Assembly: GCF_003334405.1 (NCBI RefSeq)
Contig: NZ_QOWM01000003.1
DNA: 64,000 bases
Direction: 5' to 3' (one strand)
Origin: Escherichia coli
Lineage (GTDB): Bacteria > Pseudomonadota > Gammaproteobacteria > Enterobacterales > Enterobacteriaceae
Made by a program: the position numbers and the translations under genes. Below are positions 62,933 through 63,754 of this stretch, piece by piece. Numbering within the stretch: the first letter of the stretch is position 1; each line of letters opens with the position of its first letter. The notes under the pieces were generated by a model. It had not been told where the DNA came from and searched no databases. It saw nothing but the letters and a program-made list of their open reading frames with translations.

Positions 62933-63754
62933 ATGATGCACAGGTTGAATCTCAATGGCTATGAACCCGACCGACACCATGAAGCCGCGGTCGCATTTTG
63001 TATTCACGCCGGAACGGATGAGTTAACCAGTCCTGTACATCAGCACCGCAAAGGACAGCTGATACTGGCGCTACATGGTGCAATTACCTGTACGGTGGAA
63101 AATGCTTTGTGGATGGTGCCGCCACAATATGCGGTTTGGATACCGGGCGGGGTGGAACATAGCAATCAAGTAACAGCTAATGCTGAACTCTGTTTTCTGT
63201 TTATCGAACCCAGCGCAGTGACAATGCCGACAACATGTTGCACATTGAAAATATCGCCCTTATGCCGGGAATTAATTTTAACCCTGGCAAACAGGACGAC
63301 GACTCAGCGTGCTGAGCCAATGACCCGCAGATTAATTCAGGTCCTGTTTGATGAACTCCCTCAGCAGCCACAACAACAGCTGCACCTGCCCGTTTCTTCT
63401 CATCCTAAAATCCGCACGATGGTGGAGATGATGGCGAAAGGGCCTGTCGAGTGGGGGGCATTGGGGCAATGGGCTGGCTTTTTTGCGATGAGTGAACGCA
63501 ATCTTGCCCGACTGATAGTAAAAGAGACGGGGTTGAGTTTTCGCCAGTGGCGTCAGCAGTTACAGCTGATTATGGCGCTTCAGGGATTAGTGAAAGGCGA
63601 TACTGTACAGAAAGTTGCTCATACGCTGGGGTATGATTCAACAACGGCCTTTATTACTATGTTTAAGAAAGGCCTGGGGCAAACGCCAGGCCGATATATT
63701 GCGAGATTAACTACTGTTTCCCCACAATCAGCGAAACCAGACCCGCGGCAATAA
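62933..63754 (+). CDS. nimR: AraC-family regulator NimR (YeaM)
   Basis: Track ORF 273 aa; cupin-like N-terminus and C-terminal AraC HTH; divergent from nimT. Confidence 0.9.

Follow-up and report, generated by a model that had tools for sequence, protein, structure and literature searches.

The stretch analysed here (the window) comprises 64,000 nt of an Escherichia coli contig (NZ_QOWM01000003.1) that is collinear with the chromosome of strain MG1655, from which it differs by 10 SNPs, none of them at the junctions; positions in the two sequences are related as MG1655 position = 1938509 - window position. Twelve convergent gene junctions lie in the window, and the distances between the facing coding ends are -44, -4, -4, 0, 3, 21, 45, 53, 55, 58, 119 and 143 nt, negative values being overlaps. 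The three negative distances correspond to the overlaps picked out by a sequence-only reading of this DNA, namely 44 nt on opposite strands for nimR/yeaL and 4 nt each for ptrB/exoX and rlmA/mntP, and mechanical ORF calls together with the RefSeq annotation confirm all three. The gene ends are identical to those annotated by RefSeq in the K-12 strains ER1709 and MG1655. Two further junctions absent from that reading, yebW/pphA and pdeD/yoaE, are as spacer-less as the overlapping pairs. The coding sequences and coding overlap below are defined by ORF calls and annotation.

9670..11730, plus strand: ptrB coding sequence (oligopeptidase B)
11727..12389, minus strand: exoX coding sequence (exonuclease X), as annotated
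11727..11730, in plus-strand letters: CTAA shared-stop tetramer, with TAA of ptrB and TAG of exoX
16196/16197: yebW/pphA convergent junction, gap 0 nt
31449..32258, plus strand: rlmA coding sequence
32255..32821, minus strand: mntP coding sequence, as annotated
32255..32258, in plus-strand letters: TTAA shared-stop tetramer, giving TAA to rlmA and mntP alike
38480..38484: pdeD/yoaE convergent junction, gap 3 nt
62933..63754, plus strand: nimR coding sequence, AraC-family repressor, 273 aa
63711..64000, minus strand: yeaL, 3' portion (148-aa membrane protein, DUF441), the gene continuing to ~64157 beyond the window
63711..63754, both strands: nimR/yeaL coding overlap, 44 nt

All six members of the overlapping pairs are real protein-coding genes as judged by homologues, Pfam matches and agreement with RefSeq. 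NimR matches the HTH_18 and AraC_binding families, conserved homologues of YeaL, MntP and ExoX with Pfam domains number in the hundreds to thousands, and RlmA and PtrB show the expected Pfam families in the junctions of the genera compared.

Surveys of E. coli have counted 58 convergent overlaps, with a modal length of 4 nt (Lillo & Krakauer 2007, PMC2174442), and 75 convergent overlapping pairs (Huvet & Stumpf 2014, PMC4161906). Set against our own estimate of ~650-700 convergent pairs, these literature counts give a genome-wide overlap rate of ~9-12%, at which three or more overlaps among 12 junctions have a probability of about 0.09-0.15, so that the number found in the window is not above chance. 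Overlaps of the 4-nt class share their stop codons in one of the tetramers CTAA, TTAA, CTAG or TTAG (Lillo & Krakauer 2007, PMC2174442), and ptrB/exoX (CTAA) and rlmA/mntP (TTAA) both belong to the class by this definition. The same study put forward a stop-codon-mutation model for the origin of convergent overlaps, and reported Rho-independent terminators predicted inside the partner for 23 of the 116 genes that form such overlaps in E. coli (Lillo & Krakauer 2007, PMC2174442). The class, its 4-nt mode, an origin by stop drift and terminators embedded in the partner have been known since 2007.

The nimR/yeaL overlap spans the last 14 sense codons plus the stop of each gene. Its junction region was found in 5409 of 5426 complete genomes, and the 44 nt are unchanged in five E. 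coli genomes sampled over a range of identity down to 96.9%. Across 59 Enterobacteriaceae junctions the arrangement extends from genes 127 nt apart to genes overlapping by 45 nt, the commonest state being an overlap of 17 nt (28 junctions), followed by 44 nt (14), 20 nt (3), 6 nt (2) and 21, 45 and 0 nt (one each), with gaps of 5 nt in five junctions and of 1, 4, 122 and 127 nt in one each. The two frames are phased such that codon position 3 of yeaL falls on position 2 of nimR and position 1 on position 1; any synonymous change in yeaL therefore alters NimR. In the 14 species whose genes overlap by 44 nt, the last 14 amino acids of YeaL are 100% identical, all but one of the variable overlap sites are yeaL wobble sites, and 10 of the 14 yeaL wobble sites vary. 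Pairwise identity over the last 14 amino acids of NimR is 70%, compared with 92.7% for the 60 amino acids before them. Extra constraint on yeaL synonymous sites from the NimR tail was not significant (10/14 variable against 49/60, Fisher P=0.46). The HTH_18 domain of NimR ends at residue 257, and residues 260-273 are those encoded inside yeaL. Judging from these comparisons, the 44-nt overlap is a case of stop-codon drift, in which the nimR frame meets no stop until 14 codons into yeaL antisense, and NimR residues 260-273, lying past the DNA-binding domain, would evolve as a passenger of yeaL, the constrained partner. The long overlap would then represent an unconstrained protein tail, not doubly constrained dual coding.

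From the same arrangements it had been argued that the pairs leave no room for terminators and that the 3' ends of the mRNAs overlap in antisense. The second claim is borne out by published ends for two strands, those of rlmA inside mntP and the exoX Rho region in ptrB, although the inference is in part a truism: an mRNA has to extend to its stop codon, so two genes whose coding ends overlap must have overlapping mRNAs, and if transcripts stopped short of the overlap on both strands, they would simply be non-stop mRNAs. The first claim holds for intergenic space only and fails otherwise, since elements for 3'-end formation lie within the coding sequence of the partner, a putative yeaL hairpin in nimR and an rlmA hairpin in mntP. 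The features concerned are the following.

11256 (MG1655 1927253, plus strand), minus strand of the window: Rho-dependent termination region (Adams et al. 2021, PMC7815308)
32269..32289, plus strand: 9-bp hairpin GCGUCCAGA-GGA-UCUGGACGC, rlmA-sense, inside mntP codons and followed by no U-run (folding)
32295 (MG1655 1906214, minus strand), plus strand of the window: published Term-seq 3' end of rlmA mRNA (Adams et al. 2021, PMC7815308)
63661..63670, minus strand: U-rich tract UUUCUUAAAC after the yeaL-strand hairpin, antisense to nimR codons F-K-K (scan)
63671..63692, minus strand: hairpin GGCCUGG-N8-CCAGGCC, putative intrinsic terminator or 3' stabiliser of yeaL (scan, folding, conservation)
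63755..63936, plus strand: C-rich, G-poor stretch after the nimR stop, candidate Rho entry region, antisense to yeaL (composition)

At rlmA/mntP, the published 3' end lies 37 nt past the rlmA stop, which places it 41 nt inside mntP (Adams et al. 2021, PMC7815308). It falls 6 nt after the rlmA-sense hairpin (-17.5 kcal/mol, z -2.5), with CGAUGC next and a stretch richer in C than in G beyond. This hairpin is encoded by mntP codons V-Q-I-L-W-T and is largely kept in six other genera; its stem shows one T-A to C-G double change, in a set of only seven sequences that is too small for a test, and a stem change in Enterobacter cloacae accompanies two amino-acid replacements in MntP. A Rho region at MG1655 1906268 (minus strand) carries a double classification, internal for rlmA and antisense for mntP, and a significance of 1.3e-31 (Adams et al. 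2021, PMC7815308). Around the junction, the terminator scan revealed a canonical intrinsic terminator on neither strand; the two genes overlap here by 4 nt in four genera and stand 3 nt apart in two. On the published Term-seq and bicyclomycin data, rlmA transcripts end at the hairpin within mntP, in a Rho-dependent region.

For exoX, a Rho region has been reported 471 nt beyond the stop codon, in antisense orientation within ptrB (Adams et al. 2021, PMC7815308). Neither a canonical intrinsic terminator on either strand (terminator scan) nor an unusual structure (folding, z -0.15 and -0.97) was found at the ptrB/exoX junction, where the distances in five genera are +10, -34, 0, +4 and -3 nt (here positive for overlap and negative for gap). 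According to the published data, exoX transcripts run for hundreds of nucleotides antisense into ptrB until Rho stops them. A Rho region also lies 252 nt beyond the stop of yoaE, at window position 38732 (+) (Adams et al. 2021, PMC7815308).

For yeaL and nimR (yeaM), the data of Adams et al. (2021, PMC7815308) contain no 3'-end entry and no coordinate in the range 18747xx-18749xx, and mapped 3' ends of yeaL, nimR, exoX, ptrB and mntP are likewise absent from the supplements of Adams et al. 2021, TERMITe 2025 and SMRT-Cappable-seq. The case for how yeaL ends comes from the inverted repeat within nimR. Its stem of 7 bp (6 of them G-C) and loop of 8 nt, followed by UUUCUUAAAC, have the form and position of an intrinsic terminator: the hairpin begins 19 nt past the final base of the stop codon of yeaL (an 18-nt spacer) and occupies nimR codons 247-254 (G-L-G-Q-T-P-G-R), or codons 244-254 together with the U-run. 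It is the sole terminator-like site in the 1.7 kb scanned around nimR/yeaL, where ~2 are expected by chance, and its fold energy of -14.1 kcal/mol in the yeaL sense (z = -1.5, with 14 of 200 shuffles folding equally well) is on its own not exceptional. Five of 70 four-fold, amino-acid-invariant sites of nimR have an entropy <=0.29 bit, and four of these five are wobble sites of the stem, nearly invariant in Escherichia/Citrobacter (permutation P~5e-6); the wobble sites of the loop are saturated. Escherichia, Citrobacter and Salmonella have both hairpin and T-run; in other genera the combination is weak, and Klebsiella, Enterobacter and others lack the structure.

These features of sequence and synonymous-site conservation suggest that the yeaL transcript most likely ends at the hairpin and U-run inside nimR codons 244-254, with a 3' end predicted in the U-run at about MG1655 1874842-1874848 (plus strand). 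We regard as evenly balanced the fuller proposition that, in Escherichia, Citrobacter and Salmonella, the yeaL terminator is built from the AraC-motif codons F-K-K-G-L-G-x-x-P-G-R of nimR, freezing four nimR synonymous sites and shielding nimR from antisense transcription, with the rlmA hairpin made of mntP codons as its parallel. On the other strand, the region 63755-63936 has a C content of 0.31-0.42 and a C/G ratio of 1.4-2.0, and nimR transcription probably ends by Rho action in this C-rich antisense of yeaL.

An alternative that we consider unlikely, while taking it seriously, is that the inverted repeat at 63671-63692 does not terminate yeaL and is a protein-binding palindrome in the DNA, or a structure of the nimR mRNA acting in pausing, stability or translation. 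No compensatory base-pair changes were found in the yeaL-strand stem among the sequences compared, only conservation or uncompensated mismatches, the latter in three Citrobacter lineages; covariation therefore cannot separate an RNA hairpin from a conserved DNA palindrome, and conserved half-sites around a free 8-nt spacer suit a hairpin and a dimeric binding site equally well. The nimR-sense hairpin also folds better (-17.7 kcal/mol, z -2.9), but it lies 62 nt before the nimR stop and is followed by GAUAUAUUG, a position from which it cannot form a productive nimR 3' end. Against this alternative stand the terminator-like placement of the repeat, 19 nt past the yeaL stop with UUU(C/U)UU directly after it and on the yeaL-sense strand only, and the fact that T-run and hairpin co-occur in one clade and decay together in other genera.

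Taking the three pairs together, we think it likely that they are ordinary tail-to-tail overlaps of real, independently conserved genes, arising as stop codons drift neutrally at junctions with a long history of tight packing, with transcripts ending inside the partner gene. Having no spacer, such pairs would make their transcript ends within the neighbour, and their mRNA 3' ends would be complementary over tens to hundreds of nucleotides; nothing indicates that this complementarity is a selected regulatory device. Selection for compaction or coupling, instead of pure neutrality, could also explain why tight junctions are kept across genera.

It is rather improbable, in our estimation, that the overlaps are selected regulatory devices through which the partners damp each other by polymerase collision, transcriptional interference or dsRNA cleavage, in the manner of an excludon or of collision-driven bidirectional termination. 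The junctions are indeed tight in most of the genera examined (34-nt gap to 45-nt overlap), the rlmA 3' UTR is antisense to mntP, and a hairpin under nucleotide-level selection lies within the region of transcript overlap, where the collision model (Ju 2019, Wang 2022) gives such hairpins a role. However, overlap length is not conserved among the 59 nimR/yeaL junctions and the NimR tail drifts. No nimR-nimT pair stands beside yeaL in several species of Escherichia and in other genera, and IS1 interrupts nimR in some E. coli, so that the nimR/yeaL pairing is dispensable. No functional connection is obvious between the partners, and neither LB nor M63 yielded 3' ends for the five unmapped genes, which suggests low expression and few collisions; the efficiency of bidirectional termination is lower for lowly expressed pairs (Wang et al. 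bioRxiv 10.1101/2022.10.23.513370). Finally, the notion that the 44-nt overlap is an annotation artefact, one coding end not being translated as annotated, can appeal to a NimR tail that is poorly conserved and outside any domain, but we reject it as highly improbable: the 3' end of an ORF is set by its first in-frame stop whatever the start, the stops are visible in the sequence and both frames are unambiguous, the YeaL C-terminus is strictly conserved, and the nimR frame is anchored to residue 257 by a conserved AraC motif and has no earlier stop in six E. coli sequences (K-12 and the five genomes).

As a discovery the overlaps carry little weight, being present in every K-12 annotation, and the value of the analysis is mainly corrective: a coding overlap does not imply that a terminator is absent, as the terminator may be written in the codons of the neighbour or its work handled by Rho. 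The synonymous footprint of the yeaL-strand hairpin in nimR offers a small testable case of an RNA signal of one gene constraining the codons of another. If this were general, partner-embedded terminators would measurably constrain synonymous sites, and even non-synonymous ones, across the ~60-75 convergently overlapping gene pairs of E. coli.

Among known systems, the bidirectional collision-assisted terminators (Ju et al. 2019; Wang et al. bioRxiv 10.1101/2022.10.23.513370) resemble the present pairs in their convergent genes, overlapping transcript ends and hairpin in the overlap region. They differ in being intergenic (e.g. ynaJ-uspE), whereas the pairs here have no spacer and a polymerase transcribing nimR must pass the hairpin to finish the nimR ORF. 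They also work best for highly expressed pairs, whereas expression here appears low, and they entail precise, overlapping ends on both strands that need neither Rho nor a U-run, whereas here one strand (rlmA) is mapped, at a Rho-sensitive locus. Intergenic bidirectional hairpin terminators within the window (yebQ/htpX, purT/eda, yoaJ/yeaQ and yoaC/yoaH) likewise end two convergent transcripts, but as an A-run, hairpin and T-run in spacers of 45-143 nt, which the overlapping pairs do not have. Term-seq ends have been published for yoaJ/yeaQ, as well as for yoaC/yoaH, where both strands have them.

The pairs are also like the convergent overlapping pairs described earlier (PMC2174442, PMC4161906): opposite strands with common 3' coding ends, CTAA and TTAA tetramers, and a drift that fits stop loss and read-through. 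There is no essential difference, the 44 nt of nimR/yeaL being merely longer than the mode. With the partner-embedded Rho-independent terminators (Lillo & Krakauer 2007) the yeaL-strand hairpin and U-run share a location wholly within codons of the partner, here those of nimR; the yeaL case adds the constrained synonymous sites of the partner and, unlike curated terminators, is a prediction. Rho-dependent transcripts, lastly, have steady-state 3' ends just after stable stem-loops that lack a U-run (Dar & Sorek 2018, PMC6061677). rlmA shows both marks of this type, a published end 6 nt past a 9-bp hairpin without a U-run and a published bicyclomycin-sensitive region, and differs in that its protective hairpin lies in the coding sequence of mntP instead of a non-coding 3' UTR.

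The window is a K-12-type chromosome segment collinear with MG1655 (MG1655 coordinate = 1938509 - window coordinate), from which it differs by 10 single-base differences (NC_000913.3; window positions 8228, 13089, 34759, 43480, 43670, 44897, 46583, 48251, 57043 and 62207), none of them near the nimR/yeaL, ptrB/exoX or rlmA/mntP junctions; the source is accordingly not MG1655 itself but closely related to it. The three convergent 3' overlaps of 44, 4 and 4 nt reported in the sequence-only reading were confirmed by a mechanical ORF listing, and the RefSeq annotation of two K-12 records gives the same gene ends for all three pairs:

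nimR 62933-63754 (+), yeaL end 63711 (-): overlap of 44 nt
ptrB end 11730 (+), exoX end 11727 (-): overlap of 4 nt
rlmA end 32258 (+), mntP end 32255 (-): overlap of 4 nt

The two shorter overlaps are the tetramers CTAA (ptrB/exoX) and TTAA (rlmA/mntP), each carrying a stop codon on both strands.

By annotation, the gaps at the 12 convergent junctions of the window are -44, -4, -4, 0, 3, 21, 45, 53, 55, 58, 119 and 143 nt, and thus include two further spacer-less junctions that the sequence-only reading did not list, yebW/pphA (0 nt, 16196-16197) and pdeD/yoaE (3 nt, 38480-38484). Directly past the window end, yeaK/yoaI has a 0-nt gap as well. The E. coli genome contains roughly 650-700 convergent pairs by estimate. 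Published counts of convergent overlaps in E. coli are 58 (Lillo & Krakauer, 2007, PMC2174442) and 75 (Huvet & Stumpf, 2014, PMC4161906). Three overlaps among twelve junctions are not unusual (P ~0.09-0.15, for 58-75 overlaps over our estimated 650-700 pairs) and represent an ordinary case of a known class. Co-directional coding overlaps also occur in the window, at letA/letB (yebS/yebT; 32 nt, 20968-20999) and yoaL/yoaE (13 nt, ~36924-36936, MG1655 annotation). The pphA-yebY spacer (15172-15443) holds RyeA/SdsR, a known antisense sRNA pair with full overlap. Term-seq ends are recorded for RyeA/SdsR on both strands (Adams et al., 2021, PMC7815308).

To follow the longest overlap across species, we used 80 Enterobacteriaceae loci with yeaL from a scan (one genome per species), measured the overlap from the first in-frame stop after the conserved AFITMF(K/R)(K/N) motif, and counted the 59 junctions at which a nimR orthologue faces yeaL:

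17-nt overlap: 28 junctions (Klebsiella, Enterobacter, Raoultella, Kluyvera, Leclercia and others)
44-nt overlap: 14 junctions (K-12 and the Citrobacter freundii complex)
20-nt overlap: 3 junctions
6-nt overlap: 2 junctions
21-, 45- and 0-nt overlap: 1 junction each
5-nt gap: 5 junctions
1-, 4-, 122- and 127-nt gap: 1 junction each

In the other 22 loci nimR is not beside yeaL; in E. whittamii, for instance, yeaO comes after yeaL. The nimR-nimT pair is missing beside yeaL in E. albertii, E. whittamii and other Escherichia lineages (compared loci L008-L011; L010:2947-3400), with yeaO following yeaL. In Kosakonia the place of nimR is taken by an unrelated, convergent permease-like ORF that overlaps yeaL by 21 nt (L038:2927-2947), so that this end of yeaL has entered an overlap a second time, independently. 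The 44-nt state appears to be fixed within E. coli proper, being identical in 5 sampled genomes down to 96.9%, the lowest identity among the 5409 genomes with the region. In several complete E. coli genomes nimR is split by an IS1 insertion, suggesting that some lineages can do without the regulator.

In NimR (273 residues) the Pfam HTH_18 domain stops at residue 257, ahead of the overlapped residues 260-273. The frames are phased such that yeaL wobble positions lie opposite second codon positions of nimR. The 14 species that share the 44-nt overlap have 100% identity in the YeaL tail, with variation at 10 of its 14 wobble sites, and pairwise identity of the NimR tail is 70% versus 92.7% in the 60 residues before it. 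Wobble variability of yeaL was not significantly reduced inside the overlap relative to upstream (P=0.46). The sequence is therefore dictated by yeaL, and the NimR tail is a passive follower. Since the next stop in the nimR frame lies 219 nt beyond the present one, antisense of yeaL (L001:3953-4172 = window 63752-63971, +), overlap length is set by the chance position of a stop, and one stop-loss mutation in nimR would stretch it from 44 to 263 nt. Stop-codon drift, across a protein tail under no constraint, accounts for the 44-nt overlap.

The same behaviour, in which tightness persists while exact ends wander, is seen at the other two junctions. The mntP/rlmA 4-nt overlap is kept in E. fergusonii, Citrobacter freundii, Salmonella and Enterobacter cloacae, with a 3-nt gap in Klebsiella michiganensis and Raoultella, and exoX/ptrB shows overlaps of 10 nt in Citrobacter portucalensis and 4 nt in Cronobacter, and gaps of 34 nt in Salmonella, 3 nt in Klebsiella pneumoniae and 0 nt in Kluyvera.

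A consensus scan of 1.7 kb around nimR/yeaL returned a single terminator-like site, on the yeaL-sense strand, of the form GGCCUGG-N8-CCAGGCC followed by UUUCUUAAAC and beginning 19 nt after the last base of the yeaL stop:

63692-63671 (-), yeaL hairpin, with U-run 63670-63661; wholly within nimR codons 244-254

At -14.1 kcal/mol (z -1.5; ~2 such sites expected by chance) this hairpin is unremarkable on its own, and it is notable through its comparative signal. Among 70 four-fold degenerate sites with an unchanging amino acid in nimR of 20 Escherichia and Citrobacter species representatives (a second version of the synonymous-site analysis used 60 codons), only five had entropy <=0.29 bit, and four of these are stem wobbles (codons 247, 248, 252 and 253; permutation P ~5e-6), with the three loop wobble bases saturated. 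The four stem sites show free variation in Klebsiella, Enterobacter and other genera, where both the hairpin and the T-run are degraded. We infer that codons of nimR double as a clade-specific intrinsic terminator, or as a 3' stabiliser, for yeaL, and this synonymous-site footprint would be the one modestly new element here. The inverted repeat may alternatively be a DNA-level palindrome: the compared sequences had no compensatory pairs in the stem, and mismatches in three Citrobacter lineages are left uncompensated. The published 3'-end datasets searched (Adams et al., 2021; TERMITe; SMRT-Cappable-seq) contained no yeaL 3' end.

We see no sign that the overlaps serve regulation: they drift in length, the NimR tail is free of constraint, related species lack the nimR-yeaL pairing, and IS1 interrupts nimR in some E. 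coli. Expression also appears to be low, whereas highly expressed pairs are reported to be those at which collision-assisted bidirectional termination works best (Ju, 2019; Wang et al.).

As a productive nimR 3' end the yeaL hairpin is ruled out because it lies 62 nt ahead of the nimR stop and has no U-run after it on the nimR-sense strand. That strand is C-rich and G-poor for ~180 nt after the nimR stop (C/G 1.4-2.0), a composition that would be compatible with Rho loading. For three of the other spacer-less junctions, published data (Adams et al., 2021, PMC7815308, Supplementary files 1 and 2) give a transcript end or Rho-dependent regions:

32295 (+), rlmA Term-seq 3' end (MG1655 1906214 (-); file 1), primary for rlmA and antisense to mntP; 37 nt beyond the rlmA stop, 41 nt into mntP, 6 nt past a 9-bp hairpin
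32269-32289, rlmA hairpin, 9 bp, -17.5 kcal/mol, z -2.5, without a U-run
MG1655 1906268 (-), Rho-dependent region at the rlmA/mntP junction (file 2)
11256 (-), Rho-dependent region (MG1655 1927253 (+); file 2), 471 nt past the exoX stop, antisense to ptrB
38732 (+), Rho-dependent region (MG1655 1899777 (-); file 2), 252 nt past the yoaE stop, antisense to pdeD

The rlmA end appears in two listings of Supplementary file 1, which spans three growth conditions. The proposal that mRNA 3' ends overlap in antisense is correct, as the rlmA end and the exoX region show; it is partly a logical necessity, because both mRNAs must contain their own stop codons, and the data show complementarity reaching well past the coding overlap. 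That no room is left for terminators holds for intergenic space only and fails overall, given the rlmA end inside mntP and the putative yeaL terminator in nimR. The sequence-only reading was therefore correct in its observation, albeit of an ordinary kind, and partly supported in its interpretation.

The rlmA hairpin is mostly kept in six other genera. In Enterobacter cloacae (L094) it carries a T-A to C-G double change, with two MntP replacements (T to A and V to A), which may be antisense RNA structure co-varying with protein sequence, an anecdotal case among only seven sequences. Convergent junctions of the window with spacers of at least 45 nt, by contrast, show visible hairpins flanked by A- and T-runs, and Term-seq ends are recorded at yoaJ/yeaQ and, on both strands, at yoaC/yoaH (Adams et al., 2021, PMC7815308). 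With a Rho region and a stem-loop without a U-run just before it, the rlmA 3' end resembles the Rho-dependent transcripts that end just past stable stem-loops lacking U-runs (Dar & Sorek, 2018, PMC6061677).
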